Translations under genes and position numbers: made by a program
Shown: positions 9,693-33,967 of the stretch, piece after piece
Position numbering within the stretch: position 1 is the first letter of the stretch
Layout of the letters: each line of letters opens with the position of its first letter
Source of the DNA: an uncultured Acidobacteriota bacterium
Lineage (GTDB): Bacteria > Acidobacteriota > Thermoanaerobaculia > Gp7-AA8
Assembly: GCA_963822445.1 (NCBI GenBank)
Contig: CAWGHO010000003.1
Coordinates: 512,001-576,000 of the forward strand
Direction of reading: 5' to 3'
DNA length: 64,000 bases
Notes under the pieces: model-generated
The model's input: only the letters and a program-made list of their open reading frames with translations
Databases searched by the model: none
Told to the model about the DNA's origin: nothing

Positions 9693-9824
9693 CTGCGTCC
9701 GTAAGTTATTGCTGCAATGCGTCGTTTCCAAAATGGTGTAAAATTCACCGGTCCGATTTCCGCGTCCAACTCGAGAACGCCCGGGATCACCCCGGGTGTA
9801 GCCATTTTGTCGATAGGGGTTGCC

Positions 9825-12800
9825 ATGACCGCGAACCGCCGTTTGCTCGTCTCTTCGTTCTTGTTCTTTGCGTTGTTTCCGGTGTTGGCAGGTGCGGCCA
9901 CGATCGAGTTCCGCACCCTGATCGACGTCGACAACAACGGGGCAACGGGTTGCGCGACCGGTGGACTGACCGGAGTCGAGCACGTGGTCGTAACCGTGGT
10001 GAAGACGGACGCCACCAGCGGCGCGGTGGAGCAATCTTATCGACTGGCCTGCTCGGGCGGCTCGCTCGGTTCGCCGATCGACGTCAACACGAGCGGATGG
10101 CCGGTCGGATTCAACGCGGCGAGCGGCGGAATGCTCGTCGAGAATCGCATCGCTTTCTCAACCCTTGGCGGCGGCATGCCCAGCGGCCTTCGCCTCGCCT
10201 TCGACGCCCGCAGCGGCAGCTCGACTCACAGCGCGACGGCCACTTCGACCGGCGCGTCGATCATCTATCCCGAGCGTTCCGGCAAGCGTCGTTCGGTGGC
10301 GGCGCCGGGCGGCGACCAGCGGTTTTTCCAGCTCGATGGCAACGGCGCGGACTGGGGCGCGATCGACCCGGTCGTCAACGGCATCGCCGGCGACGGCACC
10401 GCCGCAATCCGCATGATCAAAGCGTTCGCGTACGCGAATGCGACCGATGAATTCGTGTACTTCCGCGTCGACGCGAACGGCGGCTCGGACGCCCCGTTTG
10501 CTGAAGATGACGAGTACTCGCGCACGACCGGCCAGGCCACCTTGTCGGTCCCGGCACCGGGCGTGCTCTCGAACGACGGCGACCCGAACGGCCAGCCCCT
10601 CACGGCGCTTCCGGTCAGCCCCGCGACGCACGGCGACGTCACCCTGAACGCGGACGGCAGCTTCACCTACTCACCGGCCGACCCGAGCTCGTCGCAGACG
10701 GACTCCTTCCAGTACAAGGCCACGAACGGCGCGCAGGACTCGAACGTGGCCAAGGTCACGATCAAAGTGTCTACCGTCGCGAACCTCGCGCCGGTGGCTG
10801 TGAACGACTCGCAGAGCACGAGCGAAGATCAGACGCTCAATGTCGGGGCGCCGGGCGTTCTCGCCAACGACAGCGATCCCGACGGCGACACGATGACGGC
10901 GACCAAGCTCACCGATCCGTCCAACGGCTCGGTGGTCGTCAACCCCGACGGCTCGTTCACCTACACCCCGAACCTCGACTTCTTCGGTACGGACACCTTC
11001 ACCTACGAAGTCAGCGATGGCGAGGCCACCTCCGTCGCCACCGTGACCATCACCGTCGAGAGCGTGAACGATGCGCCGACCGTCTCGCCGGCCACGTTCT
11101 CGGTCGACGAGAACGCCGCCAACGGCACGGTCGTCGGCACCGTCAACATGAATGACGTCGACGCGGGCGACTCCCACGGCTTCGCGATCACCGGCGGCAA
11201 CACCGGCGGCGTCTTCGCGATCAGCAACTCCGGCCAGATCACGGTTGCCAACAACGCCGCGCTCGACTTCGAAGTCACCCCGTCCTACAGCCTCACCGTG
11301 ACGGTGACGGACAACGGAATCCCGGCCCAGTCGGGCAGCGCCACGATCACGATCACCGTGAACGACCAGAACGAGGCCCCGGTGGCAGCCAATGACGCCG
11401 CTACGATCCTCGAGGACGGCAACGTCAACGTGGTTGCGCCCGGTCTGCTGGCGAACGACACCGATCAGGAAGGTGACACGCTCACCGCGACGAAGCTCAC
11501 CGATCCGGCGAACGGAACCGCGACCGTCGCGGCCAACGGCGCCTGGACCTATCAGCCGAACCCGAACTTCAACGGCACCGACAGCTTCACCTACCAGGTC
11601 AGCGACGGCACGAACACGTCGAACATCGCCACCGTGACCATCACCGTCACCGCGGTCAACGACACGCCGTCGTTCACGGCCGGCCCGAACGTCGTCTCCG
11701 ACGAAGACACGCCGTTCAGCGCCGGTTGGGCAACGGGCATCAGCGCTGGTCCGGCCGACGAAGCCGGCCAGACGCTTACGTTCAACGTCAACTCCGACAA
11801 CCCGGGCCTGTTCCAGTCCGGACCGACGATTTCGTCGACCGGCGTTCTGAGCTTCACGCCGGCGTTGAACGCGATCGGCGTGGCCAATGTGACGGTTTCC
11901 CTGTCCGACAACGGCGGGGGAGCGAACACCAGCGGCACCCAGAACTTCACCATCACCGTGAACGCGGTCAACGACGCGCCGTCCTTCACCGCCGGTCCGA
12001 ATCAGACCGTCAACGAAGACGCCGGCCCGCAGACGGTGAACCCGTGGGCCACCGGCATCACCCCCGGACCGGCCGATGAGGCGGGACAGACCGTCGCCTT
12101 CGCGATCACGAACAACACCAATCCGGCGCTCTTCTCCGCCGGCCCGACCGTCTCGCCGACCGGCGTACTGACGTATCAGGCCGCGGTCAATGCCAGCGGC
12201 GTCGCGACGATCACGCTGGTCCTCTCCGACAACGGCAGCAACGTCGCGCCGAACGTCAACACCTCCGCGCCGCAGTCGTTCACGATCACGATCAACGCCG
12301 TGAACGACGCGCCGGTCAACAGCGTGCCGGGTGCGCAAACCGTCGCGGAAGGGGGGACGATTGTCTTCTCGGCAGCGAACGGCAATCTGATCTCGATATC
12401 GGACGTCGACGCCGGATCGGGTCCGTTCCTAGGCGCAATGTCGTGCAGCAATTGCAATATGACAGTTGCGACCGGCTTCGGCGCGACAATCACACAGAAC
12501 GGCACGTCGTCTGTTGTCATCGAGGGCACGCTTGCGCAGGTAAACGCAGCGCTGAGCTCCGTGACATACACGTTGAACGCTGATTCCAACGGACCTCAGA
12601 CGATTACCGTTCAGGCCGATGACCGGGGCTCGACGGGAGCGGGCGGGGGTCTCTTGGACACGGACGTCATCAACGTCACCGTCACGGAAGTCAACGACCC
12701 GCCGACGCCGACGAATGACGCCACTACCACGCCGGAAGACGTGCCGCTCGCCTTCGCCGCCGCCACGCTGACCACCAACGACAGCGCCGGCCCGGCCAAC

Positions 12801-15800
12801 GAGAGCGGCCAGACCCTCACCGTCACGGCAGTTTCCGCGACCTCCACCCAGGGCGGCACGGTCACCCTCGTCGCCGGCACGATCACCTACACGCCGCCCG
12901 TGAATTTCAACGGCACCGACACCTTTACTTACACGGTCACCGATAACGGCACGACCAACGGCGGCGCCGATCCGCAGAGCGCGGTCGGGACGGTCACCGT
13001 CACCGTGACCGAGGTCAATGACGCGCCGGTTGCGACCGACGACGCCACCGCGGCGACGGAAGACACGCCGCTGGCCTTTGCCGCCGCCACCCTGACCACC
13101 AACGACAGCGCAGGCCCGGCCAACGAGAGCAGTCAGACGCTCACCGTCACCGGTGTTTCAGCGACCTCCGCGCAGGGCGGCACGGTCACCCTCGTCGCCG
13201 GCACCATCACTTACACGCCGCCGGCGAACTACTTCGGCGCAGACAGCTTCACCTACACCGTCACCGACAACGGCACGACCAACGGCGTCGCCGCTCCGCT
13301 CACCGACACCGGCACGGTCAACGTGACCGTCTCCGCAGTGAACGACGTGCCGCTCCTCACCGTTGCCGGCGCGGTCACGCACACCGAGGGTGGCGCGGCC
13401 ACGAACGTCGCCACGGCGGCCAACATCTCCGACGTCGACGACACCAACATCGAGTCGGCCACCGTCCAGATCAGCGGCAACTTCGCGGTCGGCGAGGACG
13501 TCCTCTCGTTCGTCAACACGCCGCAGATCACCGGAAGCTTCGTCGGCGATACGCTGACGCTCACCGGCAGCGACACGCTGGCGAACTACATCGCCGCGCT
13601 GCAGGCCATCCAGTACACGAACACCTCCGACACACCGTCGACGCTCCAGCGCACGCTTACGTGGATCGTCAACGACGGCAGCGGGAACAGCAACACCCAG
13701 AACACGACGGTCGACGTGACCGCGACGAACGATGGGCCGGTCAACACCGTTCCGGTCGCGCAGTTGGTGTCCGAGGACACGCAGCTCACGTTCAACCTCG
13801 CGAACGGCAACCTGATCTCCATCGCCGACGCGGACGCGAATCCGGATGACGTCCAGGTCACCCTCAACGTCACCAACGGCACGGTAACCCTCAATCCGGC
13901 GGCGACCGGCGCGCTGACCACGCTCACCGGCGACGGCACGGGCACCGTGGTCGCCACGGGCACGGTGGCCGAGATCAACGCCGCCCTCGATGGACTGGTC
14001 TTCCAGGGCATCGCCAACTACACCGGCGCGGCCTCGATCGAGATCGTCACCAACGACCTCGGCAACAACCCCAGCGGCGCCTCGACGACACGGACACTGT
14101 CGCGATCACCATCAACCAGATCAACGATCCGCCGGTCGCTCACCGTCACCGGCGCGGTCACGCACAACGAGGCGGCGCAGCCACGAACCTCGCCACGGCG
14201 GCGAACATCACCGACGTCGACGACACCAACATCGAGTCAGCGACGATCCAGATCACCGGCAACTTCGCCAGCGCCGAGGACGTCCTCTCCTTCGTCAACA
14301 CCCCGACCGATCATCGGCGTCGTCGCCGGCGACACGCTGACCCTGACCGGCAGCGACACGCTGGCGAACTACATCGCCGCGCTGCAGGCCGTGCAGTACA
14401 CCAACACCTCGGATACCCCGTCTACGCTGCAGCGCACGCTCACCTGGACCGTCAACGACGGCAGTATAACAGCAACACCCAGACGACGACGCTCGACGTC
14501 ACCGCGACCAACGACGGCCCGGTCAACACGTCGCCGTTGGCGTCGCGACACGAATGAAGACACGCCGGTGGTCATCAACGGCGCCAAGCGATTCCATCGC
14601 CGACGCCGATGCGCGTCCGACGACGTGCAGATCACGCTGAACGTGACCGGCGGTACGGTCGCACTCGACCCACGCCACCGGTGCGCTGACCACCCTGACC
14701 GGCGACGGCGGCGGCAACCGTCGTCGCCACCGGCACGTCGCCGAGATCAACGACGCCCTCGACGGCATGACCTTCGCCCGACGCCAATCCAGCGGCACCG
14801 CTCGATTCAGGTGGTCACCGACGATCTCGGCAACAATCCGAGCGGCACCTCACCGACACCGATTCCTTCAACATCACCATCAATCCGATCAACGATGCGC
14901 CGGCACTCACCGTGACCGGTTCGCCGACCTTCGGCGAGAACGGATCGCCCGTCCTGATCGCCTCGGCCGTCAACATTACCGACGTCGACGACACCAACAT
15001 CGAATCGGCCACGATCACCATTCCGCGAACTTCCAGGCGCTCGACGTGCTGAATTCACCAACACGCCGAACATCACCGGCAGCTTCGTCGGCAGCACGTT
15101 GACGCTCACCGGCAGCGACACGCTCGCCAACTACATCGCCGCCCTGCAGTCGGTCGAGTTCTCGCACGGCTCGGAGAACCCGTCGACGGCCCAACGCACC
15201 ATCACCTGGACTGTCAACGACGGCGACAGCAACAGCAACACGCAGAACACGACCGCCGACGTGACCGCAGTCAACGACGCGCCGATCAACACCGTCGCGG
15301 TCGGGGCGGTCACGGACGAAGACATGCCGCTGACCATCAACGACGCGTCCATTACGGACGTCGACGCCAATCCGGACGATGTCCAGATCACCCTCAACGT
15401 CACCAGCGGTACGGTGGCCCTCGATCCGGCCGCCACGGGCGCGCTGGCGACCCTGACCGGCGACGGTACGGCCACCGTTGTTGCTACCGGCACGGTCGCG
15501 GAGATCAATGCCGCGCTGAGCGGCATGGTCTTCACCCCGACACCCGACTTCAGCGGCACCGCGTCGATTCAGATGGTCACCGACGACCTCGGCAACAACC
15601 CGAGCGGCGCGATCACCGACACCGACTCGTTCAACATCACCGTCAACAACCTCAACGATGCGCCGGTCCTCACCGTGACCGGCGCGCCGACCTTCGCCGA
15701 AAACGGCTCGGCGGTGGCGATCGCCTCGAGCGCCAATATCACCGACGTCGACGACACGAACATCGAGTCGGCCACCATCACCATTACTAATGTGCAGACC

Positions 15801-18800
15801 GGCGACGTGTTGAACTTCGTCAACACGCCGAACATCACCGGCAACTTCGCGGCCGGCGTGCTCACGCTGACCGGCAGCGACACCAAGGCCGCGTACATCG
15901 CCGCCCTGCAGTCCATCACCTTCTCGAACGCCTCCGACAACCCGTCGATCACCCAGCGCCTCCTCACCTGGGTCGTCAACGACGGCAACATCAACAGCAA
16001 CACCCAGAACACCACCATCGACGTGACGGCGACCAACGACGCGCCGGTGAACACCGTCGCCGTCGGTGTGACGACGAACGAAGACACGCCGGTGGTCATC
16101 AACGGCGCGTCGATCGCCGATCCGGACGCAGATCCGGACGACGTCCAGATCACGCTGAACGTCACCGGCGGTACGGTGGCCCTCGACCCGACGGCCACCG
16201 GCGCGCTGGCGACGCTGACCGGCGACGGCTCGGCCACTGTCGTTGCTACCGGCACGGTCGCGGAGATCAACGTCGCGCTCTCCGGCATGACCTTCACCCC
16301 GACGCCTGACTCGAACCTGAACACCGTCAGCGCGGCGATCCAGATGGTCACCGACGATCTCGGCAACAACCCGAGCGGCGCCATCACCGACACCGACTCG
16401 TTCGGCATCACGGTGAATGCAGTCAACGACCCGCCGAGCTTCACTCCGGGCACCGACATCACCGTGCCGGAAGACGCCGGCAACGTCATCTCCCCGAACT
16501 GGGCAATGAACCGCAGCAAGGGACCGGCTGACGAAAACGGACAGGTCCTCACGTTCACCGCCACCGTCACCGGCACGACCGGCACGCTGACGTTCCAGAC
16601 CGCCCCGGCCGTGAACGCCACCACCGGCACCCTGACCTTCCGGGCCAACGACAACACCTGCGGCACGGCGACGGTCGACATCTTCCTGACCGATGACGCC
16701 GGCACGCCGGGCGTCCCGGGCGATGATCTCAGCGGGCCGACGCACACCCTCAACCTCATCATCCAGTGCGTCAATGACACCCCAAGCTTCACCAAGGGCC
16801 CGGACCAGACCGTCGACGAAGACGCAGCCGCGCAGACCATCAACCCCTGGGCCACGGCCATCAGCCCCGGCCCCGGTGAGACCGATGCTCTGACCTTCAA
16901 CGTCTCGAACGACAACAATGCGCTCTTCACCGCGGGCGGCCAGCCGGCCGTTTCGCCGACCGGCGTACTGACCTACACCCCGGCGCCGAACGCGAACGGC
17001 ACCACCATCGTCACCGTCACTCTCACCGACGACGCCGGCACCCCGGGCGTTCCGGGCGACGACGTCACCACCGCACCGCAGACGTTCAACATCACCATCA
17101 ACGCGGTGAACGACGCTCCGAGCTTCTCCATCGCCGGCGACCCGCCGTTCGTCGTCCTCGGCTCGGGCGCGCAGACCGTCAACGGCTACGCGACCAGCAT
17201 CACCGACGGCGATCCGGAACTGACGCAGGTCCTGACTTTCAACCTCAGCCAGACCGCGAACAGCGGCACCCTGGCGTTCGACGTGGCCCCGGCCATCGAT
17301 CCGTCAACCGGCAACCTGACCTACACGCCGAGCGCCGGCACCCACGGGACGGTGACGTTCAGCGTCACGCTCAGCGACAACGGCTCGAACACCGCACCGA
17401 ACGTGAATGTCTCCGGTGCGCAGAGCTTCACCATCGCCGTGGAGAAGGCTCCGGAAGTCACCACCACCGTGCCGGTCAACGGCGCGACGGGTGTGAGCAC
17501 GTCCACGAACATCACCGTCAACTTCGACGAGCCGGTCTCGGTCACGCTGGTTCCGGCCTCGTTCAAGATCAACTGCAACGCCGGTGCGGATCTCGCGTTC
17601 GCCTACGTCGGCGGAACGACCAACGTCACCACCGTGACGCTCGACCCGACGGCCACGCTGCCGGCCGGCAACTGCGTCGTGACCGTCGTCGCCAACGAGG
17701 TGCATGACACCGACGCGTACGATCCGCCGGATGGTCTCGCCGCCGACTACGTGTTCAGCTTCGTCACCAACACGCCGCCGACCGCAGTCGACGACAACGC
17801 GACGGCCCTCGGCCATGTCACGCTGACGGTCGCCGATGGGGCGGGCGTGCTCGGCAACGACACCGACCCGGATGCGGGCGCGGACATGGACATCCAGAAC
17901 TTCGGTACGCCCATCACCACCACGCAGGGCGGCACGATCACCTTCACGAAGGAAGGCGGCTACACCTACAACTCACAGGCGCTCGACCAGAACATCACCG
18001 ACACGGTCAACTACACGGTGACCGACCAGTTCGGCGGCACCGACGTCGGCCAGCTCTCGATCAACCTCGGACCGCGCTTCATCTACGTCGACGACGATCA
18101 CCCGACGGTGACGCCGGACGGCCGCGACATCCATCCGTGGAAGACGCTGCAGCAGGCCCAGGCCAACTCGGCGGCGGGCGACACCATCCTGGTCAAGTCC
18201 GGTACGTATACCGACTTCATCGTCCTGCAGGCCAACCAGAGGCTGATTGGCCAGGGCATCGCCGCGAACCTCACGCAGCTCCACAACGCAGTCAACTTCA
18301 CCGTGCTCACGACCGGCGCGGCACCGAGCCTCTCCCGTGCCACCGCTGGTGACACGATCACGCTGGGGGCCAACAACGTCATCCGCGGCGTAGCCATCGG
18401 CGCGTCCAACGGCCGGGGCGTCGTCGGCAATGCCTTCACCTCGGTGACGATCAGCGAATCGTCGATCTCCACGACCGGCGGCGCGGCTCTCGATCTCACC
18501 ACCGGCGCGGCGACGATCACCCTGAGCAGTACCTCGTCGACGAACAGCACCGGCACGGGCGTCAACCTCGTCGGCATCACCGGCTCGGTCGATCTCGGCA
18601 CGGGCAGCATCACCAATCCGACCGGTATCGCCTTCAACGCGACCGGCGGCACCGCGGCCATCACCTACGCCGGCAACGTCAGCGCCGGCGGCGCCGGCGC
18701 GGTAGTCATCGCCACGCGCGCGGCGGGCAGCGGCAATGTCACCCTCTCAGGCACCATCACCGGCTCGGCGAACGGCATCGGCATCAACGTGAACAACGTC

Positions 18801-21800: not shown

Positions 21801-21845
21801 GGCGGCAGCCCGGACTTCAACGGCGGGGCCTGTCCGCAGCCTTGA
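9825..21845 (+). CDS. Giant surface protein 1 (~4000 aa): Sec signal, many Ig/cadherin-like (Big_9/tandem-95 type) repeats, SbsA-type Ig domain, C-terminal beta-helix; frameshifted in ~14080-15060
   Basis: ORFs 9717..14915 and 15099..21845 carry the same repeat types and are bridged by a damaged repeat copy; signal MTANRRLLVSSFLFFALFPVLAGA; repeats ND(A/T)P..ED..GVLAND.D..FTYTP..F.GTD.FTY; cadherin-like ENAANGTVVG..LDFE; G/T/N-rich beta-solenoid from ~18080; ends GGACPQP. Confidence 0.85.
13341..16424 (+). repeat. Four tandem ~770 bp intragenic repeats, each encoding two Ig-like domains
   Basis: Units begin ~13341, 14123, 14891, 15655; near-identical DVDDTNIESAT, LTLTGSDT, DDVQITLNVT, DLGNNPSG coding segments. 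Confidence 0.85.
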
Positions 21846-21875
21846 TGCGATTCTTTGAAGTCGGATAGTGCCGAC

Positions 21876-21925: not shown

Positions 21926-22026
21926 CCGGATCGGCCCGCTTGGGGTGATAATCGGCGCCGGTCCAAATCGTCCGGTCCCCTGACAATCCACGGCTCCACA
22001 TCTACTCAACCAGAGAGAGGAGTTTT

Positions 22027-22542: not shown

Positions 22543-22555
22543 AAGGAGAACTGCA

Positions 22556-23071: not shown

Positions 23072-23086
23072 AGAGGAGAGGGACCA

Positions 23087-23614: not shown

Positions 23615-23623
23615 TGAGATAAA

Positions 23624-23680
23624 TCGGACGGCAGCACGCAAGGAAAAAAGCTTGCGTGCTGCCGTCCGAAGACTTAGATT
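23624..23680 (+). promoter_or_regulatory. Perfect 19-bp inverted repeat overlapping a sigma70-like promoter upstream of giant protein 2
   Basis: TCGGACGGCAGCACGCAAG (23624-42) / CTTGCGTGCTGCCGTCCGA (23651-69); TTGCGT 23652-57, 17 nt spacer, TAGATT 23675-80. Confidence 0.55.
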
Positions 23681-23829
23681 GTCGTCTGTCCAATTCTCAC
23701 GAGAGAGAGAGTTAGCAACGACGTAGTGTATTGACCTGCGTGCTGCCGCTCGTCACGGCGCCGCTTGTACTCTGGTCCGCACAACCAAGTCAGAAGAGCC
23801 GTGCGCTCACGGTAAGGGGAGACCCACGC

Positions 23830-26800
23830 ATGCGATCCGTGTCATTGCGGGTATTTTTCGTCCTATTAGCCACTTTTGTTACTGCGTCGGCGTTTGCGCA
23901 CGATGTAACGCTGAGCGGTACGACATCCTTCGCGGCGATCGACGGATCTGCCAATGACCATGACAATGCCGTAAACGGCGTCTTCACGGTCAATGACGGA
24001 AATCTCGTCGTCAGTGGCGTCGTCAACTGCAATGACGACTCTACAGAGAGCGCATGTGCCATGGCCTTCGCGGTCAGCGGCAACATGACCGTCACTACGG
24101 CCGGCGCGCTCTATGCCGAGAACCGCTCCGGCGGCGGCAGCGGCGGCGCGATCACGCTCACTGTAGGCGGAAGCCTGACCATGAGCGGAAACGCCATTGT
24201 GTCGACCGCCTCCAGGAGCTCGAGCGGCTCGGGCGGCGGCGCCATTACGGCGAACGTGACCGGCAATGTCACGATCGGCAACGGCAGCACGATCGACTCC
24301 GGCAGCGCCAACGCCGCAGGCGGCAACCTCACCATCGCCTCCGCGGGTCTGGTCAGCATCGACGGCAACGTCCTGTCCGGCCCCAGCCGCACGATTCTCT
24401 CTACCCGCCTGACCGGCGCCGCCCTCGATGGCGGCACCGCCAATCAGGTCGGCGGTCAGATCACGATCGGCTCTTCGACGTTCGTCGAACCGGCCATCGT
24501 CATCGGCGGCAACGCGAACATCATTTCGCAGGGCGGCGGCTCCGGCGCCGGCCCGGTGGTCATCGACGGTTGCGGCGTTCAGGTCCGCGGCCTCGTGGCC
24601 GCCCTATCTCGGAATGCCTCGGCGGCGAAGGTCGCCATCCGTTCCGGCAAGGACGTCCTCATCGACTCGCGCGACCTCGGCGTCGTCGGCGCACCGCTCG
24701 GCCGCAACGGCCGCGTGCGCGCCGATGCTCCCACCGGTACGGCCATCAACAAAGGCGTCGACGTTTTCGCCGCCGAGACCATTGATATTCATGGTGCATC
24801 GGGCAGCCTCTTCTCGATCACCTCGCACCCGGGTGTCCACGATTCGAAGAGCTACGGCGGTCTGATTCGCATCACCTCCCTCGGCGACGCCATCACTGCC
24901 AGCGGCAATGTGATCGACGCCGGTCACAGCGCCGCGGGCGACACCGGCGGCACGGTCGAGATCAACGCCAAAGCCACGATCAATCTCGACTCCGCCGTGA
25001 TCCGCGCGATTGGCGACTTCAATACGAACAATCCCAACCGAGGGGGCGGGTCGATTCGCGTTCGCTCCTATTCGGGAGATGTGGTGTGGACCAACGGAAC
25101 CGGCGAAGTGCGGCCGGTCGGGTCCTCCTCGAACCTGCCCCTTGCGGATCAGGGCACCATCGTCCTGACCGCGTGCGGCACCGTGAACACCACCGGAAGC
25201 ACCTTCCCGGTGATGGGAACCGCGACCAGCATGTTCCCCGAAACGCACACCGGCGTCTGCTCGCCGGCGGCTCCGTCGCTGCCGACCGGTGTTGCGCCGC
25301 TCGTCACCTGCAACACGCCCCCCGTGGCGAACGACTCCGCGGCATCGACCAATGAAGACAACTCGGTCACGGTCACCATGACCGGTACCGACGCGGACGG
25401 CGACTCGCTGACCTTCTCCGTCGTCAGCGGTCCCTTCAACGGCAGCGTCGGCGCGGTCACGTTCGTGAACGCCACGACCTCCACCGTCGTCTACACCCCG
25501 AACCTCAATTACAACGGCGTCGACAGCTTCGTTTTCCAGGCGAACGACGGCAACGGCGGCACGGACAATGGCACGGCCACGATCACCATCGCACCGGTGA
25601 ACGATGCGCCGGTCTTCCTCGTCGGCCCGACCGTGACCGTCCTCGAGGACGCCGGTCCGCAGACCTACACCAACTGGGCGACCGGCATCAGCGGCGGCCC
25701 GGCCGATGAATCCGGCCAGGTCGTCACCTTCACCGTCACCAACGACAATCCGTCTCTCTTCAGCGTTCAGCCTGCGGTTTCCTCGAACGGCACGCTGACC
25801 TATACCCCGGCCGCGAACGCCTACGGCAGCGCGAACCTCACCGTCACCGCGCAGGACAACGGCGGCACGGCCAACGGCGGCGTCGATACCTCGGCACCGC
25901 AGAACAGCAGCATCACCGTCACGCCGGTCAACGACGAGCCGTCCTTCGTCAAGGGCGCCGACCAGACCGTGAACGAGGACGCCGGTCCGCAGTCGGTTGC
26001 CGGATGGGCCACCGCAATCTCGGCCGGTCCGAACGAAGGCGCACAGACGGTCACGTTCAACCTCTCGAACACCAACAACTCGCTCTTCAGCGTCCAGCCG
26101 GCGGTTTCGTCGAACGGCACGCTGACCTACACGCCGGCCGCGAACGCGAACGGTAGCGCCACGGTCACGATCGAGGCGCAGGATGACGGCGGCACCGCCA
26201 ACGGCGGCGACAACACGTCGCCTTCGCAGACGTTCGTCATCACCGTGAACGCGGTCAACGACGCGCCGAGCTTCACCAGCGGCGGCGACGTCTCCGTGCT
26301 CGAAGACTCCGGCGCCTACAGCGCCAACTGGGCGACCGCAATCAGCGCCGGCCCGGCCGACGAGTCCAGCCAGACCGTCACCTTCAACACGTCGAACGAC
26401 AACAACAGCCTCTTCTCCGTGCAGCCGTCCATCTCCCCGACGGGCGTGCTGACCTTCACCCTCGCCTCGAACGCCTTCGGTTCGGCGAACGTGTCGGTCA
26501 CGCTCTCCGACAACGGCGGCACCGCGAACGGCGGCGTCGACACCTCGGCGGCCCAGACGTTCTCGATCACCGTCGGGAACATCAACGACGAGCCGACCTT
26601 CACTGCCGGCGGCGACGTCACGGTCAATGAAGACAGCGGCGCCTACTCGGCGGCCTGGGCTTCGGCGATCAGCGCCGGTCCGAATGAGACCGACGCGCTC
26701 ACGTTCGTCGTGACCAACGACAACAACGGACTCTTCTCCTCGCAGCCGTCGATCTCCGCGAGCGGCGTTCTGAGCTTCACGCCGGCCGCGAACGCCTTCG

Positions 26801-29800
26801 GCAGCGCGGTCGTCAGCGTCACCCTGACCGATGACGGCGGCACCCTCAACGGCGGCGACGACACCTCGTCGACGGTGACCTTCACCATCACCGTGAATTC
26901 GGTCAACGACGCTCCGAGCTTCACCAGCGGCGGCAACGTCTCCGTCGGTGAGGACAGCGGCGCGTACTCGGCCGCCTGGGCCACCGCCATCAGCGCCGGC
27001 CCGGCCAACGAGTCCACGCAGACCGTTTCCTTCATCACCTCGAACAACAACAACGCGCTCTTCAGCGTGCAGCCGTCGGTCGACTCGAACGGCGTGCTGA
27101 CCTTCACCCCGGCCGCGAATGCGACGGGCACTGCGACCATCACGATCTACGCGCAGGACACCGGCGGCACCGCGAACGGCGGCGTCGACGTCAGCGCCTC
27201 GCAGACGTTCACCATCAGCGTCAACGGTATCAACGACCCGCCGTCGTTCACGCCGGGCGCCGATCAGACCTCGAACGAAGATGCCGGTCCGCAGACGGTC
27301 GTCGGCTGGGCCACGGGCATCAGCTCGGGTCCCGGTGAGACAGACAACGTCACCTTCTTCACCAGCAACAACAACCCGTCGCTCTTCTCCTCGCAGCCGA
27401 CGGTCGCTCCGAACGGCACGCTGACCTACACCGCCGCGCCGGATGCGAACGGCACCGCCACCGTCACGATCTACGCGCAGGATGACGGCGGCACGGCCAA
27501 CGGCGGCAATGACACGTCGGCCACGTACACGTTCACCATCACCATCGTGGCCGTGAACGATCCGCCGAGCTTCACCGGCGGCGGCAACGTGAGCGTCCTC
27601 GAAGACTCCGGCGCCTACTCGGCCACCTGGGCCACCGCGATCAGCGCCGGTCCGGCCGATGAAGCCGGCCAGACGCTGACCTTCAACGTCACGAACGACA
27701 ACAACAGCCTCTTCTCGGTGCAGCCGTCGATCTCGGCGAGCGGCGTCCTGAGCTTCACCGTCGCGGCGAACGCCTTCGGCTCCGCCAACGTGACGGTCAC
27801 GCTCTCCGACGGCCTCGCCACCACCGCACCGCAGAGCTTCACCATCACGGTCGGTGCAGTGAATGACGCGCCCTCCTTCGTCGGTGGCGGCGACGTCACC
27901 GTCAACGAAGACAGCGGTCCGTACTCCGCGTCGTGGGCCAGCAGCATCTCCGCCGGCCCGAACGAAGGCTCGCAGACGGTTTCGTTCAACACGTCGAACA
28001 ACAACAACAGTCTCTTCCTCGTGCAGCCGTCGATCAGCTCGACCGGCGTGCTCTCCTTCACCCCGGCGCTCAATGCCTTCGGTAGCGCCACGGTGACCGT
28101 TACGCTGTCGGACAACGGCGGCACCGCGAACGGCGGCGTCAACACGTCCGCGCCGCAGACCTTCACCATCAACGTCACCGCGACCAACGACGGCCCGACC
28201 GCGAACGCCGACTCGTGGCAGACGATCGGAAACACCGAGCTCCGCGTCGATCTCGTCGCGGGTTTGACGCCGTACGTCGGTGACACGACCCCGTCCGGCA
28301 ACGGCGTGCGCGACAACGACACCGATCCGGAAGGCGATCCGACCATCGTCACCGGCGTCGTCGGTTGCGGCGACACCACCGCGCCGTTCGACTGCACCCT
28401 GGGCAGCGGAGCGAAAGTCAGCATGCTCGCGAACGGCTCGTTCAGCTACACGCCGGCTCCGGGCACCAGCAGCGGCACGTTCCAGTACACCGCCACCGAC
28501 ATCCCGTCGGCCGGCTCGCCGGTCACGACCACCGGCACGGTGACCATCACGCACTTCGACATGGTCTGGTACGTCAACGGAGCCGCGCTGCCGGGTGGTA
28601 ACGGCACGTCGAGCTCACCGTTCAACGGCTTCACCTCTCTCAATGGCATTGGCGACGTCGACGGCCCCGGCCACACGATCTTCGTCCATACCTCGGCCGT
28701 CGCCGGCAGCATCGCCCTCGAGACCAGCCAGAAGCTGTGGGGCCAGGGCGTCGGTCTGAGCCTTCCGTACAACCTCAATGGCAACGGTAGCCCGACCGTC
28801 CTCGTGGCGCCCGGCATCCAGCCGACCGTCACCTCGGCCGCTGACGTCGTCACGGTCAGCGGAGTGATCGGCACCGAGATCGCGGGCCTCAACCTCGCGA
28901 GCACGGGCGGTAACGCCGTCGACGTCACCGCGGCGCCGTTCGGCTCACCGGCCGGTGCGTCGATCTACAGCAACACGATTTCCGGCGCGGGCGCCGAGGG
29001 GATTGACGTGAGCGGCGGACACGCGATGGTGTCCACAGTCTCGATCAACAACAACACCATCACCTCGACCGGCAACGGCATCGATGTGAGCTCGTTCGGC
29101 AGCACGAACATCGCCATCAGCAACACGACCATCACCTCGACGGGCGGCAGCGGTATCCGCATGGACGGCACCGGCTCGCTGACTGTCTCCGCGCTGCAGA
29201 ACATCACCGTCAGCGGCAACACCGCGGCGAACGGCATCGAGATCGCGGACGCGAGCTTCACCGCCGTCGCCACCGGTGCCATCACCGTCGGCGCGAGCGG
29301 CAATCCGGTCGGTGGTGCCGGCGTCGTCCTCACCAATTCGACGGGCAGCCTGGCCTTCGGCACGCTCACCGTACACGCCGCAACAACCGGCGTCACCGTC
29401 AGCGGTACGGCGGCGTTCAACGTCACCAGCGGCGGCGGCTCGATCAACAACGCCAGCGGTGCTGGTCTCAACATCTCCAACGCGACCATCGGCGCGGCCA
29501 ACTTCAACCTCACCAGCATCACCTCCGCCGGCGGCGCGAACGGCATCGTCCTGAACAACACCGGTACGGCGGGTGGTCTGAACGTCACCGGCAGCGGCTC
29601 GGCCGGCACGGGCGGCTCCATCACCGGCAAGACCGGCGACGGCGTCTCGCTCACCAACACCCAGCGCGTCGGCCTGGCCTGGATGAGCATCTCCGGCAGC
29701 GCAAGCAGCGGTATCCGCGGCAATGGCGTCAACGGCTTCGTCGTCGACAACAGCACGATCACTGGAAACGGCAGCAGCCTCGCGAACGACGACTCGGGCA

Positions 29801-30804
29801 TCAACATCGTCAACCTGACCGGCTCGCTCGCCGCGGGAACGCGCCCGACGGCGATCACCAATTCGACGATCAGCAACAACTACGAGTTCGAAGTGCAGAT
29901 CACCAACTCCACCGGCACGCTGCCTGACTTCCGGATCACCAACAGCACGATCTCGAGCAACGGCGCGACCGGCGTCCACGGCAACCTGGTGAACTTCCTC
30001 GCCACCGGCACGGCCAGCATGACCCTCAACGCGTCGGGCGGCAGCTATACCGGCAATGCCCCGGCGACGGCGACCGCCATTCAGGCCGACGCATCGGGCG
30101 GCACGGTCGTCGCCAACGTCTCCGGCGCGACGTTCACCACCAACAACGTCGGTGTCAGCGTCTCCGTGGCGCTGGGCGGTACCCTGACCTTCGACGTGAA
30201 CGGGAACACCCTCACCGGCACCCGCTCGCACGGTCTGAACTACTTCATCGCTGGGAACCACACCGGCACGTCGTCGGGCAAGTTCCGTAACAACGTCATC
30301 GGCACGTTCGGCGTGGCCGGCTCCGGCTCGGCGCTTGGCTTCCCGGTCCGCGTTCAGAACGAGGCCGTCAGCGCGGCGACGGTGCTGATCGACAACAACA
30401 CCATCTCCGAGTCCAGCTTCAACGCCATCAACGTCAACGTGGCCATCTCCACCTCGACGGGAACCGCGACGACCGCGGCCACGATCACCAACAACCTCAT
30501 CCGGAACGTGACCGCCAACCGCGCGATCATCGTGCAGCACACGTTCGGCAAGGGAACCATCTGCGCCGACATCGCCGGCAACTCCATGTCCGGAATCGCC
30601 GGCAGCGCGGGTGACGGTTCGAAGATCCGCATCCGCCAGCTGGCGGGCGGTACGTTCAACGTGAAGCAGAAGCAGGCCACCGTCGCGGTGGATCCGGCCG
30701 AGCTCGACGACGCCAACAGTGTTGGCCTCAACATCACCACTGCTGCGCAGGTCAGCACATCCGGGATCTTCAACTACAACGCCGGTGGCTGTCCGCAGCC
30801 CTGA
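23830..30804 (+). CDS. Giant surface protein 2 (2324 aa): Sec signal, N-terminal beta-solenoid, ~10 Ig-like repeats, C-terminal beta-helix
   Basis: Intact ORF; ATG 23830 after AAGGGGAG; signal MRSVSLRVFFVLLATFVTASAFA; repeats ND.PSF..G.DV.V.EDSG.Y...WATAISAGP..E..Q.V.F...N.N..LFSVQP; ends AGGCPQP. Confidence 0.9.
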   Translation: MRSVSLRVFFVLLATFVTASAFAHDVTLSGTTSFAAIDGSANDHDNAVNGVFTVNDGNLVVSGVVNCNDDSTESACAMAFAVSGNMTVTTAGALYAENRSGGGSGGAITLTVGGSLTMSGNAIVSTASRSSSGSGGGAITANVTGNVTIGNGSTIDSGSANAAGGNLTIASAGLVSIDGNVLSGPSRTILSTRLTGAALDGGTANQVGGQITIGSSTFVEPAIVIGGNANIISQGGGSGAGPVVIDGCGVQVRGLVAALSRNASAAKVAIRSGKDVLIDSRDLGVVGAPLGRNGRVRADAPTGTAINKGVDVFAAETIDIHGASGSLFSITSHPGVHDSKSYGGLIRITSLGDAITASGNVIDAGHSAAGDTGGTVEINAKATINLDSAVIRAIGDFNTNNPNRGGGSIRVRSYSGDVVWTNGTGEVRPVGSSSNLPLADQGTIVLTACGTVNTTGSTFPVMGTATSMFPETHTGVCSPAAPSLPTGVAPLVTCNTPPVANDSAASTNEDNSVTVTMTGTDADGDSLTFSVVSGPFNGSVGAVTFVNATTSTVVYTPNLNYNGVDSFVFQANDGNGGTDNGTATITIAPVNDAPVFLVGPTVTVLEDAGPQTYTNWATGISGGPADESGQVVTFTVTNDNPSLFSVQPAVSSNGTLTYTPAANAYGSANLTVTAQDNGGTANGGVDTSAPQNSSITVTPVNDEPSFVKGADQTVNEDAGPQSVAGWATAISAGPNEGAQTVTFNLSNTNNSLFSVQPAVSSNGTLTYTPAANANGSATVTIEAQDDGGTANGGDNTSPSQTFVITVNAVNDAPSFTSGGDVSVLEDSGAYSANWATAISAGPADESSQTVTFNTSNDNNSLFSVQPSISPTGVLTFTLASNAFGSANVSVTLSDNGGTANGGVDTSAAQTFSITVGNINDEPTFTAGGDVTVNEDSGAYSAAWASAISAGPNETDALTFVVTNDNNGLFSSQPSISASGVLSFTPAANAFGSAVVSVTLTDDGGTLNGGDDTSSTVTFTITVNSVNDAPSFTSGGNVSVGEDSGAYSAAWATAISAGPANESTQTVSFITSNNNNALFSVQPSVDSNGVLTFTPAANATGTATITIYAQDTGGTANGGVDVSASQTFTISVNGINDPPSFTPGADQTSNEDAGPQTVVGWATGISSGPGETDNVTFFTSNNNPSLFSSQPTVAPNGTLTYTAAPDANGTATVTIYAQDDGGTANGGNDTSATYTFTITIVAVNDPPSFTGGGNVSVLEDSGAYSATWATAISAGPADEAGQTLTFNVTNDNNSLFSVQPSISASGVLSFTVAANAFGSANVTVTLSDGLATTAPQSFTITVGAVNDAPSFVGGGDVTVNEDSGPYSASWASSISAGPNEGSQTVSFNTSNNNNSLFLVQPSISSTGVLSFTPALNAFGSATVTVTLSDNGGTANGGVNTSAPQTFTINVTATNDGPTANADSWQTIGNTELRVDLVAGLTPYVGDTTPSGNGVRDNDTDPEGDPTIVTGVVGCGDTTAPFDCTLGSGAKVSMLANGSFSYTPAPGTSSGTFQYTATDIPSAGSPVTTTGTVTITHFDMVWYVNGAALPGGNGTSSSPFNGFTSLNGIGDVDGPGHTIFVHTSAVAGSIALETSQKLWGQGVGLSLPYNLNGNGSPTVLVAPGIQPTVTSAADVVTVSGVIGTEIAGLNLASTGGNAVDVTAAPFGSPAGASIYSNTISGAGAEGIDVSGGHAMVSTVSINNNTITSTGNGIDVSSFGSTNIAISNTTITSTGGSGIRMDGTGSLTVSALQNITVSGNTAANGIEIADASFTAVATGAITVGASGNPVGGAGVVLTNSTGSLAFGTLTVHAATTGVTVSGTAAFNVTSGGGSINNASGAGLNISNATIGAANFNLTSITSAGGANGIVLNNTGTAGGLNVTGSGSAGTGGSITGKTGDGVSLTNTQRVGLAWMSISGSASSGIRGNGVNGFVVDNSTITGNGSSLANDDSGINIVNLTGSLAAGTRPTAITNSTISNNYEFEVQITNSTGTLPDFRITNSTISSNGATGVHGNLVNFLATGTASMTLNASGGSYTGNAPATATAIQADASGGTVVANVSGATFTTNNVGVSVSVALGGTLTFDVNGNTLTGTRSHGLNYFIAGNHTGTSSGKFRNNVIGTFGVAGSGSALGFPVRVQNEAVSAATVLIDNNTISESSFNAINVNVAISTSTGTATTAATITNNLIRNVTANRAIIVQHTFGKGTICADIAGNSMSGIAGSAGDGSKIRIRQLAGGTFNVKQKQATVAVDPAELDDANSVGLNITTAAQVSTSGIFNYNAGGCPQP

Positions 30805-30857
30805 CGTGAAGGAAACAGTTCGACTCTCCGAGTTCGATCAAAGGGAGAAAAAGTCTT

Positions 30858-31370: not shown

Positions 31371-31379
31371 GAGAATTCA

Positions 31380-31877: not shown

Positions 31878-31893
31878 GAAGCAGGAGAAATCA

Positions 31894-32403: not shown

Positions 32404-32439
32404 GGCTTCGATTCGATGAGAGACAACAGGAGAACATCC

Positions 32440-33171: not shown

Positions 33172-33671
33172 TTCCTGCAGACACGGGTGATCGCGCCGGC
33201 TCCGGCGCGATCACTCTCCGCGAAGCGAACGGCGCCGACTACGACTTCATGCGCCGCCTCTACCACGCCGTGCGTGAAGAGGAGATGAAGCAGTTCCCCT
33301 TCACCGACGTCCAGAAAGTCGTCTTCCTGAACGAGCAGTTCGCGGCGCAGTTCGAGCACTACAAGATCCACTACCCGAGCTGCGAGCGGAACATCATCGA
33401 GCTGGACGGCCAGCCCGTCGGCCGCCTCTGGATCGACGAATGGAAAGACCAGATCCGCATCGTCGATATCGGGCTCATGCCCGGCCATCGCGGCAGCGGG
33501 ATCGGCACGAAGCTCCTTCAGGAAGTTCTGGAGCGGGGCGCTGCGGCGGGGAAGCCGGTCACCATCCACGTCGAGCGATTCAATCCCGCGCTGCGTCTCT
33601 ACGAGCGCCTCGGGTTCAAGGAAATCGACACCAACGGCGTCTACTTCCTGATGAAGTGGTCGCCCTCTTAA
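33168..33671 (+). CDS. GNAT family N-acetyltransferase
   Basis: IRIVDIGLMPGHRGSGIGTKLL (acetyl-CoA motif A), NPALRLYERLGF. Confidence 0.9.
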   Translation: MIPADTGDRAGSGAITLREANGADYDFMRRLYHAVREEEMKQFPFTDVQKVVFLNEQFAAQFEHYKIHYPSCERNIIELDGQPVGRLWIDEWKDQIRIVDIGLMPGHRGSGIGTKLLQEVLERGAAAGKPVTIHVERFNPALRLYERLGFKEIDTNGVYFLMKWSPS

Positions 33672-33967
33672 GTGAAGATCGCCTCGTACTCGTAGGTCTC
33701 GGACGTCTCGGAGACCGGCACGAGGAAGACGTCCATCGCTTCGAGCGACTCGTGCGTGACGTGGTAGATCTGCTGCTTGAGCTGGAACGATTTCGGTCCG
33801 ATGAAGAAGAGTGAAAAGGGGTGCCGCTTCAGCCGCGCCTGCTCGCTCTCCATGACTTTCGCTCCGCGGACCAGGCGCAGCTCCACCTTCGCCCCATTCG
33901 GAAATTCCGCCCAGAAACTGCTTCCGATATGCGGTTCGAAGACTTCGAAAGTGAGCTGATCGAGCAT
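33668..33967 (-). CDS. DUF6916-like small protein (99 aa)
   Basis: Last 99 aa of ORF 33668..35488: MLDQLTFEVF..PFSLFF.GP..LKQQIY...H......FLVPV.....YEAIFT, the pattern of the small proteins that accompany tail-collar triplets. Confidence 0.8.
   Translation of the reverse strand: MLDQLTFEVFEPHIGSSFWAEFPNGAKVELRLVRGAKVMESEQARLKRHPFSLFFIGPKSFQLKQQIYHVTHESLEAMDVFLVPVSETSETYEYEAIFT

Follow-up and report, generated by a model that had tools for sequence, protein, structure and literature searches.

Organisation of the locus

The window analysed here, a 64-kb stretch of DNA from an uncultured Acidobacteriota bacterium, harbours two tandem, diverged modules, each consisting of a gene for a giant protein and a triplet of collar-domain genes, followed by single genes for a twin-arginine protein (TatP), a GNAT acetyltransferase and a DUF6916 protein (Table 1). 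An ORF check of the window placed 11 of the 11 genes where the first-pass annotation had located them. The TatP-GNAT pair is present once, 3' of module B only, with a gap of 12 nt between B3 and TatP and an overlap of 4 nt between the end of TatP and the start of GNAT. The DUF6916 gene is convergent with GNAT, and the ends of the two overlap by 4 nt. As GNAT, DUF6916 and the Tat protein are each encoded once, these closing genes are common to both modules, in agreement with the initial proposal. A hairpin sits between modules A and B, 10 nt after the stop codon of A3; no T-run follows it on the + strand.

Table 1. Coordinates of the genes and other features of the locus within the window
Feature	Position	Strand	Description
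Giant A	9825..21845	+	Sec-type signal, cadherin/Big_9 repeats, 762-nt repeat region, predicted C-terminal parallel beta-helix; two ORFs as assembled
Indel cluster in giant A repeat copy	14138..15054	+	about 15 indels of one base, some others of 2 to 7 bases
A1, collar type 1, 171 aa	22027..22542	+	Pfam Collar PF07484 E 6e-28; type by tree and type HMMs
A2, collar type 2, 171 aa	22556..23071	+	Pfam Collar E 8e-28; type by tree
A3, collar type 3, 175 aa	23087..23614	+	Pfam Collar E 3e-28, weak Gp10_C; type by tree
Hairpin	23624..23669		perfect 19-bp stem, 13 G-C pairs, 8-nt loop
Giant B	23830..30804 (alternative start 23731)	+	Sec-type signal, N-terminal region with no assigned domain, Big_9/Cadherin repeats, predicted C-terminal parallel beta-helix, conserved Cys pair at end
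B1, collar type 1, 170 aa	30858..31370	+	Pfam Collar; 59% identical to A1
B2, collar type 2, 165 aa	31380..31877	+	Pfam Collar; 72% identical to A2
B3, collar type 3, 169 aa	31894..32403	+	Pfam Collar; 75% identical to A3
TatP, 251 aa	32416..33171	+	twin-arginine motif, all-beta body
GNAT acetyltransferase, 167 aa	33168..33671	+	Pfam Acetyltransf_1 E 2e-14
DUF6916 protein, 99 aa	33668..33967	-	Pfam PF21880 E 2e-24

Giant proteins

Giant A, from the ATG at 9825, has an N-terminal Sec-type signal, as read from the sequence, and comprises Big_9, Cadherin_4, Cadherin_5 and Cadherin domains (Pfam, E 1e-99 to 1e-15); giant B combines a Sec-type signal with 8 Big_9 stretches (Pfam). Their last 497 residues share 45% identity (E 3e-88), and a conserved Cys pair ends both proteins at the C-terminus. 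The shared C-terminal part is predicted to form a right-handed parallel beta-helix (pLDDT 88.8, pTM 0.91), the top structural match of the model being AlgE4 (2pyg; Z 27.7, rmsd 2.7 Å over 316 residues), with the Pam1 tailspike 7eea at Z 27.5. Over 478 residues, the modelled helix resembles phage tailspikes, polysaccharide lyases or epimerases and autotransporter passengers (Z 24 to 28 to 2pyg, 7eea, 7akv, 6f7k and 3gq7). Unlike these known proteins, it matches no Pfam family, and therefore no catalytic residues can be assigned; the epimerase motif is absent from it as well.

As assembled, giant A consists of two ORFs (9717..14915 and 15099..21845). Compared with an intact 762-nt repeat unit, the repeat copy at 14082-14849 differs by about 15 one-base indels, and 2 more that break the frame lie in the following copy. 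As a result of these frameshifts, giant A has its signal peptide in one ORF and its beta-helix in the other. The indels may reflect either an assembly error or genuine decay, and giant A would be a pseudogene if they are real. The first-pass description of two Sec-signal Ig-repeat proteins with a homologous C-terminal beta-helix, each followed by a triplet, thus holds except in one respect, as giant A is not a single ORF.

Collar triplets

The cassette was surveyed in 80 loci from named genomes and in a phylum sample of 23 complete triplet loci (24 loci for the TatP count). The six collar genes of the window match Pfam Collar PF07484 (E 1e-26 to 3e-28). A tree of 77 collar proteins resolves three ancient groups that correspond to the three gene positions, with 8 label changes versus a shuffle mean of 37.0 and as low a value in 0 of 200 shuffles. 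The order is 1-2-3 in 64/80 loci and 2-1-3 in 6/80, and two Paenibacillus species carry a fusion of types 2 and 1 (ORFs of 335 and 333 aa) ahead of type 3. Both residues of a His-x-His motif are invariant within each 32-row alignment of types 1, 2 and 3. Type 3 proteins are 59-75% identical across the 80 bacterial loci. Extra collar copies come as whole triplets, in 3/80 loci, and such duplication is rare but recurrent; six collar genes were found in none of the 23 complete triplet loci of the phylum sample. In the window, the duplication is old, and every invariant residue is kept in both triplets. The head loops of triplets A and B are nearly alike, and B1, B2 and B3 are all shortened at the N-terminus in like manner.

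There is a precedent for such a triplet in the virophage DSLV2, whose tripartite tail proteins likewise come from three small genes in a row, all with a PF07484 collar and a variable head. The three proteins are reported to co-purify and to migrate at about 55 kDa on native PAGE, the expected heterotrimer being 58.3 kDa, and their binding to Synechococcus cells was assayed by ELISA (PMC12724248, J Virol 2025). The virophage proteins, as described there, are virion parts and their genes lie beside capsid genes, unlike the chromosomal genes described here, whose neighbours encode a giant adhesin, GNAT, DUF6916 and a Tat-signal protein but nothing viral. Since the His-x-His motif is invariant, two Paenibacillus fusions occur and the virophage triplet sets a precedent, the assembly of collar types 1, 2 and 3 into one 1:1:1 heterotrimer is well supported. 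The domesticated collar trimer proposed at first is supported by the tree, the gene order, the fusions and the His-x-His motif: each set comprises three distinct paralogues, almost certainly forming one mixed trimer.

Phage tail-fibre tips are homotrimers that end a long shaft. The collar profile matches the tail fibre 8kec (E 2.6e-8) over a region that takes in the His-x-His stretch, located where 8kec has its own, and T4 gp12 (1ocy/5iv5) at E 0.005-0.009; the title of the gp12 paper calls this fold 'knitted trimeric metal-binding'. Unlike phage tips, the stand-alone bacterial proteins start exactly at the collar, without a shaft, comprise three fixed paralogues and are at most 37.5% identical to phage homologues. 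They have no signal peptide. Other non-phage bacterial collar-domain proteins, for which no mechanism is known, include the 'microcystin-dependent protein' group COG4675 and, from the Rhizobium rhiABC(D) operon, RhiB (PMC13133039). As described there, RhiB alone has the collar domain in that operon, and no triplet, GNAT, DUF6916 or giant is mentioned.

Distribution of the cassette and helper genes

Many phyla carry the cassette, on chromosomes or on large non-mobilizable replicons. Most loci have one gene per collar type in a fixed order, usually with adjoining GNAT (70/80 loci), DUF6916 (65/80) and giant genes. The neighbour survey suggested in the first-pass annotation confirmed that triplets are strongly linked to giant beta-helix/Ig-repeat proteins: of the 55 loci that could be assessed (25 more could not), 51 have an ORF of at least 1500 aa within 1.5 kb of the triplet, versus 414 of 5000 positions drawn at random from this genome. 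In the phylum sample, an ORF of at least 1200 aa within 1.8 kb was found in 20/23 loci. Four assessable loci have a triplet without a giant, and about 25 other ORFs of at least 1700 aa in this genome have no adjoining triplet. The giants are heterogeneous, the beta-helix module of giant B being present in about 28 to 30 of 58 giant-bearing loci (BLAST E 1e-5).

As for the helper genes, TatP matches no Pfam or NCBIfam family and has no detectable relationship with DUF6916. TatP-like proteins with a twin-arginine motif occur in 11/80 loci and in 7/24 loci of the phylum sample. A DUF6916 paralogue with this motif is found in up to 30/80 loci by a loose pattern, and hhalign gives a probability of 99.8% for its homology to plain DUF6916. 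Together, the two types of putative Tat partners account for 40/80 loci. A motif search yielded no Tat-signal partner in about half of the 80 loci, and in Ruegeria sp. TM1040 the gene in the corresponding slot has no twin-arginine motif. The DUF6916 gene of the window is single-copy in the genome and its product has no signal peptide. No NCBIfam model matches the GNAT at its cut-off (rimI, 34.6 bits versus 86.4).

Proposed function and alternatives

We propose that the cassette is a cellular, non-viral system of phage ancestry, the front half of which is present here in two old, diverged copies. In each copy, the three collar proteins would form one heterotrimer, strongly supported by the data above, with the shape of a tail-fibre tip minus the fibre, i.e. 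a collar and a small head. It would be held by a metal ion, to which all three chains contribute their His-x-His pairs. Judging from gene linkage, the trimer and the adjoining Sec-exported giant could make up a device for recognising an extracytoplasmic surface or polysaccharide. Because the head loops of the two triplets are nearly alike, A and B are better read as variants of a single device than as two giant-matched specificities. As a whole, including export by the Tat system, we give this explanation a probability of roughly 45%.

A prophage or tailocin remnant is highly improbable. The collar domain does derive from phage tail fibres and type 3 has a weak Gp10_C match, but the 35 ORFs of the window scanned against Pfam yielded no family for capsid, tail, baseplate, integrase or lysis functions, consistent with the original view of a non-prophage locus. 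None of the 331 matching phage records reaches 60% identity (best 37.5%), most of them match at one place each (369 places), and the same cassette is spread over chromosomes and large replicons of many phyla. It is also rather unlikely that module A is a decaying duplicate and that the working unit comprises only giant B, triplet B, TatP and GNAT. The broken frame of giant A would fit this idea, as would the hairpin that sets module A apart and its lack of a TatP of its own, whereas in another locus with two triplets (L099) each has one. Nevertheless, the indels are limited to about 0.9 kb in one repeat copy, which suggests a local consensus error in the repeat, and the rest of the 12-kb gene is open. 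Moreover, A1 to A3 are intact, and their mean identity to cross-phylum sequences is 63.2%, versus 60.4% for B1 to B3.

The heterotrimer could be a free-standing exported lectin or matrix protein with the same target as the giant, an exopolysaccharide or a glycan on the surface of another cell, but never bound to it, the linkage reflecting co-regulation and co-transfer only. This is possible, but we lean against it. In its favour, cross-locus identity is much higher among triplets (58-68%) than among giants (25-44%), and the similarities of beta-helix and triplet are uncorrelated (Spearman 0.08, p 0.75, and 0.12, p 0.63; n=19 loci), giving no sign of a co-evolving interface. Giants are found upstream, downstream or convergent, one to three per triplet, their predicted fold is that of polysaccharide lyases, epimerases and tailspikes, and a soil metaproteome lists COG4675 proteins (PMC5579227). 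Against it, the collar in phage fibres is the end joined to the shaft. As the bacterial proteins begin precisely there, a partner would be expected, and a giant adjoins the triplet in nearly all assessable loci. In addition, the duplicated unit, both in L099 and in the window, is the giant end plus the triplet; in L099 the order is giant-triplet-giant-triplet and the last 370 nt of the giant were duplicated independently with the triplet (95.5% nucleotide identity). The same order in the window and L099 could argue for the reading first proposed, in which each giant would carry a cognate trimer at its tip or as an assembly cap, giant A being matched with triplet A and giant B with triplet B. 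The retention of all invariant residues in two old triplets and the shared shortening of triplet B at the likely docking end also fit such pairing. We nevertheless consider it quite unlikely, and one triplet per giant, as initially suggested, is not the rule: 7/23 phylum-sample loci have several giants for one triplet, including two same-family genomes (G040 and G070) in which the gene order is otherwise the same, and another locus (L135) has two triplets with one giant. The near-identity of the L099 triplets, the similar head loops of A and B and the lack of co-variation with the beta-helix module also speak against it.

Returning to the heterotrimer-plus-giant device, the signal peptides and C-terminal Cys pair of the giants suggest that it acts outside the cytoplasm. 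The trimer may contact the giant and leave the cytoplasm by piggy-back export. The signal-less collar proteins would most likely fold and trimerise in the cytoplasm before export by the Tat machinery, with the cassette's own twin-arginine protein as the carrier, TatP here and a Tat-signal DUF6916 paralogue in many other cassettes. In Tat 'hitchhiker' export, signal-less partners are carried along, as with the small and large subunits of hydrogenases. The collar trimer resembles such cargo as a putative folded, metal-holding, signal-less oligomer encoded beside a small twin-arginine protein; unlike in the known cases, half of the cassettes show no Tat partner, and TatP is a putative partner of the trimer. 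The GNAT probably modifies the trimer, and one speculative target would be the strongly conserved Met-Ala/Ser N-termini, which it might acetylate. In further support of a role outside the cytoplasm, the exoproteome of Ruegeria pomeroyi reportedly includes a protein with a collar domain (PMC4949626).

Organization of the locus and of the two giant proteins

A non-viral cassette, widespread and unstudied, occurs at this locus in doubled form; it is made of a triplet of collar genes, a GNAT gene, a DUF6916 gene and a gene for a giant surface protein (see the table). The host genome measures 6.0 Mb in 3 contigs, and the window has a G+C content of 65%. The eleven genes that the first-pass annotation had placed between 9.8 and 34.0 kb keep their positions, but giant A is not the single open frame assumed there. 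Each giant is followed by collar genes of types 1, 2 and 3 (A1 to A3 after giant A, B1 to B3 after giant B), with spacers of 9-16 nt in both triplets and a ribosome-binding site before each gene. A Pfam scan of 35 ORFs of the window identified a GGDEF-EAL protein among the other neighbours.

Features of the locus and of related loci (window coordinates unless another genome position or locus is named)
Feature	Position	Description
Upstream flank	1-5208	CHAT-domain protein (at least 1024 aa) adjoining an opposite-strand subtilase gene; 275-aa ORF without Pfam family between them
Giant A	ATG 9825	Sec-type signal; Big_9, Cadherin_4, Cadherin_5 and Cadherin (E 1e-99 to 1e-15)
Repeat copy of giant A	14082-14849	about 15 one-base indels relative to an intact unit (nucleotide alignment)
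Indel cluster of giant A	14138-15054	packed in one 762-nt repeat copy
C-terminal tail of giant A	21632-21845	ends in Cys-Pro-Gln-Pro
Hairpin	23624-23669	perfect 19 bp, 8-nt loop, 10 nt past the A3 stop; between the two modules
Repeat of part of one hairpin arm	about 23735-23750	just upstream of giant B
Giant B	23830-30804	own Sec-type signal; eight Big_9 stretches
C-terminal tail of giant B	30562-30804	ends in Cys-Pro-Gln-Pro
B1	start 30858	collar gene, type 1
B2	start 31380	collar gene, type 2
B3	start 31894	collar gene, type 3
TatP gene		starts 12 nt downstream of the second triplet; 251 aa, twin-arginine
GNAT gene		4-nt overlap with the TatP gene
DUF6916 gene		convergent, 4-nt overlap with the GNAT end; 99 aa
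Downstream flank	34001-38206	Kir-like potassium channel gene (IRK_C, E 2e-26), then PSCyt2/PSD1 (DUF1549/DUF1553), then DUF1501
Second collar locus of the host genome	G000:C3:1787545-1788553	outside the window
Collar fusion, Paenibacillus	L130:8985-10528	types 2 and 1 fused, 335-aa ORF
Collar fusion, second Paenibacillus species	L163:8985-10522	types 2 and 1 fused, 333-aa ORF
Hypothetical protein of Ruegeria sp. TM1040	L165:12598-13815	405 aa, between type 3 and GNAT; overlaps the GNAT start by 4 nt
Tandem repeat of a Chiayiivirga MAG	L099:1-12900	independent of that in the window

The two giants share 45% identity over their last 497 residues (E 3e-88), and the Pfam scan found no family in this part. 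A model built from 29 homologues (pLDDT 88.8, pTM 0.91) is a right-handed parallel beta-helix. It superposes on the AlgE4 epimerase module 2pyg (Z 27.7, rmsd 2.7 Å over 316 residues) and on the Pam1 tailspike 7eea (Z 27.5), and its scores of Z >= 8 with 159 representative chains place it in that fold; in Foldseek alone every E-value was above 0.001. An identity as an AlgE-type mannuronan C-5 epimerase was rejected, as the Asp-Pro-His-Asp/Glu string, which we take to be the catalytic motif of these enzymes, is absent from both giants. The Cys of the tail motif has a companion about 70 residues upstream in each giant. The pair looks like a conserved disulphide or a terminal signal; kept in both proteins, it would anchor the C-terminal tail on the helix, which fits giants that live outside the cytoplasm.

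The reading frame of giant A hops repeatedly between 14.1 and 15.1 kb, where the repeat spacing is 782, 783, 768, 763, 772 and 758 nt, compared with the usual 762. The repeat copy after the most affected one has two further frame-breaking indels. With so many indels in 0.9 kb of an otherwise open 12-kb gene, the cluster looks like a local consensus error in the repeat, though it could be real decay.

Two diverged sets of three ancient collar types

All six collar genes match the Pfam Collar family (PF07484) at 89.6 to 98.2 bits, for a curated cut-off of 24. Their products are 165 to 175 aa long, and the collar profile begins at residue 1 to 8. Identity between the triplets by position is 59% for A1/B1, 72% for A2/B2 and 75% for A3/B3, as compared with 45-53% between different positions. 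As no nucleotide similarity is left between the two triplet regions, the duplication must be old. When 77 collar proteins of our phylum sample are placed in a tree, the positions fall into three ancient groups, with 8 label changes versus 37.0 after shuffling. The A and B copies group together and with those of G034, a genome of another family, rather than with those of three genomes of the same family (SH-aLRT values for types 2, 1 and 3 in a quick search: 99, 84 and 88, respectively).

The six proteins share 45 invariant columns, which are kept in both sets. Across phyla, the head region is the most variable, with column conservation of 0.3-0.5 compared with 0.8-1.0 in the collar; within the window, the heads of types 2 and 3 are nearly the same in A and B. 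Judging from mean identity to 29 other triplets (60.4% for B, 63.2% for A), triplet B is more derived than triplet A. In all three proteins of triplet B, unlike those of triplet A, the start Met is followed by a gap of one or two residues. These residues are present in nearly all of the best 80 of at least 583 loci (segments read by eye), where types 1 and 2 begin with Met-Ala/Ser/Gly and type 3 begins with Met-Ala-Asp or Met-Asp. This shortening would represent a coordinated change at the place where the three chains should meet.

Distribution of the cassette

Our first survey was seeded from DUF6916. The phylum sample comprised 301 genomes, 27 of them with this family, and the survey covered 27 places in 25 of these, one tiny contig being omitted. 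A complete triplet was found at 23 places and two collar genes at a contig end at one; three places harbour a DUF6916-like gene without a collar gene, and none of the 27 has six collar genes. An ORF of at least 1200 aa is present within 1.8 kb in 20 of the 23 loci with complete triplets. As for the exceptions, one has a 971-aa ORF, one lies at a contig end, and one has none.

A second survey, seeded from the collar proteins with one genome per species, confirmed at least 583 stretches, of which the best 80 loci were kept. In every one of these best 80, the type 3 protein is 59-75% identical to A3, a range that spans Acidobacteriota to Paenibacillus and Mesorhizobium. According to record titles, the cassette occurs in Acidobacteriota, alpha-, beta- and gammaproteobacteria, Verrucomicrobiota, Chloroflexota and Actinomycetota, and further in Bacteroidota, Paenibacillus, Longimicrobium and Eremiobacterota; a plasmid search added Deinococcus. 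The genera are counted here under the phyla to which we take them to belong. Gene order in the best 80 of at least 583 loci is 1-2-3 in 64 and 2-1-3 in 6, whole-triplet duplicates occur in 3, and the other 7 are odd or at contig ends; GNAT is found in 70 and DUF6916 in 65. The window has the type order 1-2-3 twice, GNAT and DUF6916 beside the triplet, and two adjacent giants.

The plasmid search matched 72 records. The best 15 have three places each, and some of these are large replicons, from Aminobacter, Deinococcus and Ruegeria sp. TM1040; PLSDB typing classifies 65 of the 72 as non-mobilizable. Cultured carriers, by record title, are Ruegeria sp. TM1040, Aminobacter, Dyadobacter fermentans, Flavobacterium phragmitis and Paenibacillus eucommiae. 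On the TM1040 megaplasmid, the locus encodes a 1895-aa 'choice-of-anchor D' protein, three proteins of the genes TM1040_RS01850-RS01860, annotated as 'tail fiber protein', and a convergent 97-aa hypothetical protein with a DUF6916-like end. From the gene layout, the slot between type 3 and GNAT is variable, with the coupling to GNAT kept: it is occupied in TM1040 by a 405-aa protein in which we found no twin-arginine motif.

A predicted heterotrimer

The collar types 1, 2 and 3 very likely assemble as a 1:1:1 heterotrimer, as each set has one gene of each type and duplications copy whole sets. Type 2-type 1 fusions in two Paenibacillus species point the same way. The two moieties are joined by a short Gly-rich linker and the type 3 gene comes next, directly followed in one species (L130) by a 2762-aa ORF. 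In the stretches examined, with 10 kb of flank on both sides in L130 and only about 3 kb of downstream flank in L163, we detected no GNAT or DUF6916 gene. A His-x-His pair, invariant in the alignments of all three types, also argues for the trimer; it aligns with that of a solved long tail fibre, 8kec (E 2.6e-8), and the match to T4 gp12 covers the collar.

There is a precedent in DSLV2. The available part of the report describes three consecutive collar proteins that were co-expressed, co-purified and ran at about 55 kDa in native PAGE, for an expected heterotrimer of 58.3 kDa, and an ELISA was run to assay attachment of the complex to Synechococcus cells (PMC12724248). As far as that part goes, the likeness lies in the three consecutive collar-domain genes, which the window has twice, but the DSLV2 genes sit in a virophage genome beside capsid genes, whereas the triplets of the window are in a bacterial chromosome.

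Putative export and modification partners

None of the collar proteins has a signal peptide. TatP, the protein encoded after B3, displays a twin-arginine motif followed by a hydrophobic stretch at its N-terminus, which makes it a putative Tat substrate. It has 168 unnamed relatives, with R18, R19 and F21 invariant in an alignment of 41. Its model is an all-beta sandwich (pLDDT 74.7), for which the fold search returned only weak C2-like beta-sandwich hits (Z <= 6.5, Foldseek E > 0.001). We detected no kinship of TatP itself with DUF6916 (PF21880) other than in the signal peptide, as there is no Pfam match and the hhalign probability outside the signal region is 0.6%. The NCBIfam scan gave nothing for the collar proteins, TatP or DUF6916; in the protein atlas, TatP fell only in unnamed clusters at 0.90 and DUF6916 only in its own family. 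A predicted complex of B1, B2, B3 and residues 45-251 of TatP, run without controls, scored 0.24 for a mark of 0.32.

With an iterated profile, TatP-like proteins were detected in 11 of the best 80 of at least 583 loci, as well as in 7 of the 24 loci of the phylum sample. One TatP-like gene is in L126, from Chiayiivirga flava DSM 24163. The twin-arginine motif is present in all 20 proteins that are full-length, and in the subset listed the gene begins no more than about 0.5 kb past the type 3 gene, in several cases immediately behind it. Other cassettes have a DUF6916 paralogue as their Tat-bearing protein (hhalign probability 99.8%). Two or more DUF6916 genes are present in 29 of the best 80 of at least 583 loci, and in most of these one product is signal-less and about 100 aa long, and the second, of about 145-185 aa, has a twin-arginine motif. 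A loose pattern identified twin-arginine DUF6916 genes in 30 of the same 80, a few matches being seemingly spurious, and the union with TatP loci amounts to 40 of the 80. About half of the cassettes thus appear to have a dedicated Tat-signal protein, in two unrelated forms; in the other half of the best 80 of at least 583 loci, we found no Tat-signal partner. The presence of such a protein in half of the cassettes fits piggy-back export, whereby a folded, metal-holding trimer might cross the membrane with its Tat-targeted partner.

As for the GNAT, assignment as the RimI N-terminal acetyltransferase (TIGR01575) failed, with 34.6 bits for a cut-off of 86.4, and only the general GNAT fold was recognized. 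A small second residue leads to Met removal, leaving an Ala or Ser N-terminus. As almost every type 1 and type 2 protein has a small residue at position 2, our guess is that the cassette GNAT would acetylate the N-termini of collar proteins.

Relation to phages and to the giant proteins

No phage family was found among the 35 ORFs of the window scanned against Pfam, in agreement with the first-pass annotation, which had noted neither phage structural genes nor an integrase. Phage homologues amount to 369 places in 331 records, mostly one per record; all are below 60% identity, with a best value of 37.5%, the top ones carrying the annotation minor tail protein. A prophage remnant was rejected on the absence of phage families from the scanned ORFs and the identity of at most 37.5% to phage proteins. 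The collar proteins resemble T4 gp12/gp37-type tail-fibre tips in having a collar and then a head with His-x-His, a predicted metal site. However, those tips stand at the end of a fibre shaft in one long chain and are encoded among phage structural genes, neither of which holds for the proteins of the window.

The link of the cassette to giant surface proteins is well supported by gene neighbourhoods. Among the best 80 of at least 583 loci, an ORF of at least 1000 aa lies within 1.5 kb of the cassette core in 59, is absent in 4 assessable loci, and 17 are not assessable. The corresponding numbers are 51, 4 and 25 for at least 1500 aa, and 39, 7 and 34 for at least 2000 aa. Random 3-kb places in the host genome give 28-30%, 8.3% and 4.5%, respectively. 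The neighbour survey proposed at the outset thus bears out the association, with 51 of 55 assessable loci at the 1500-aa threshold. The reverse linkage fails: the host genome has about 25 ORFs of at least 1700 aa, only two of which are by a triplet. The trimer may also be physically attached to the giant.

Whether each giant has its own cognate triplet, as suggested earlier from the layout of the window, is a separate issue. Both the window and L099, from a Chiayiivirga MAG, are ordered giant-triplet-giant-triplet, which is what such pairing would produce. Nevertheless, several giants share one triplet in many loci. In the phylum, 7 of 23 loci have two or three giants for a single triplet, including those of G040 and G070, two genomes of the same family as the host, whose order giant-giant-triplet-TatP-GNAT with a convergent DUF6916 is that of the window minus the middle triplet. 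Conversely, L135 has one giant and two triplets. The tandem repeat of L099 is recent, with 95.5% identity along 1945 nt, of which about 370 nt belong to the end of the giant. A TatP-like gene of its own follows each triplet, and the near-identical triplets are thus beside TatP-like proteins that are clearly different by eye. The conserved head loops of A and B and the lack of correlation between beta-helix and triplet similarities (Spearman 0.08 and 0.12, n=19) also speak against cognate pairing. Finally, the giants are a mixed lot, with the beta-helix module of giant B in about 28 to 30 of the 58 giant-bearing loci among the best 80 of at least 583. As a rule, then, one-to-one pairing is unlikely.

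A bolder reading goes further. The cassette might be a domesticated phage receptor-binding device present in ten or more phyla, in which three ancient tail-fibre-tip paralogues would form a metal-centred heterotrimer that folds in the cytoplasm, crosses the membrane by Tat piggy-back on a dedicated carrier, and docks by its free collar end as the recognition head of giant tailspike-like beta-helix adhesins. The host genome would then have two versions of the device, diverged from one another and unlike at the end used for docking, as all three subunits of one set are N-terminally shortened. We give this complete scenario a probability of roughly one in five.

Collar-domain proteins outside phages

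To our knowledge, collar-domain proteins outside phages (COG4675 or 'microcystin-dependent protein', RhiB) have been without a mechanism for decades. The cassette offers a concrete, testable setting for them, with a fixed three-subunit assembly, helper genes and a neighbouring giant, and it can be tested as it occurs in organisms that grow in culture. The tandem duplications of the window and L099 represent natural material for swap experiments. If the trimer is indeed the recognition head of giant adhesins, a receptor-binding module of phages would have found broad use in cells, and the trimer would represent a new class of Tat cargo as well.

In the available portions of the literature on COG4675, 'tail collar domain protein', RhiB and the Ruegeria pomeroyi exoproteome, we found no description of the cassette, and the literature search returned no mention of DUF6916. 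From the accessible parts of the respective papers, RhiB is said to carry a collar domain (PMC13133039), the Ruegeria pomeroyi exoproteome includes a collar protein (PMC4949626), a soil metaproteome lists members of COG4675 (PMC5579227), and for Solibacter a positive-selection statistic is given for paralogues named 'Phage tail collar' (PMC3174227).

The host genome also has a second collar locus of a different kind, which is not a triplet cassette. It encodes a 162-aa protein that has a pair of short collar motifs but lacks a head domain; two more collar matches lie upstream.
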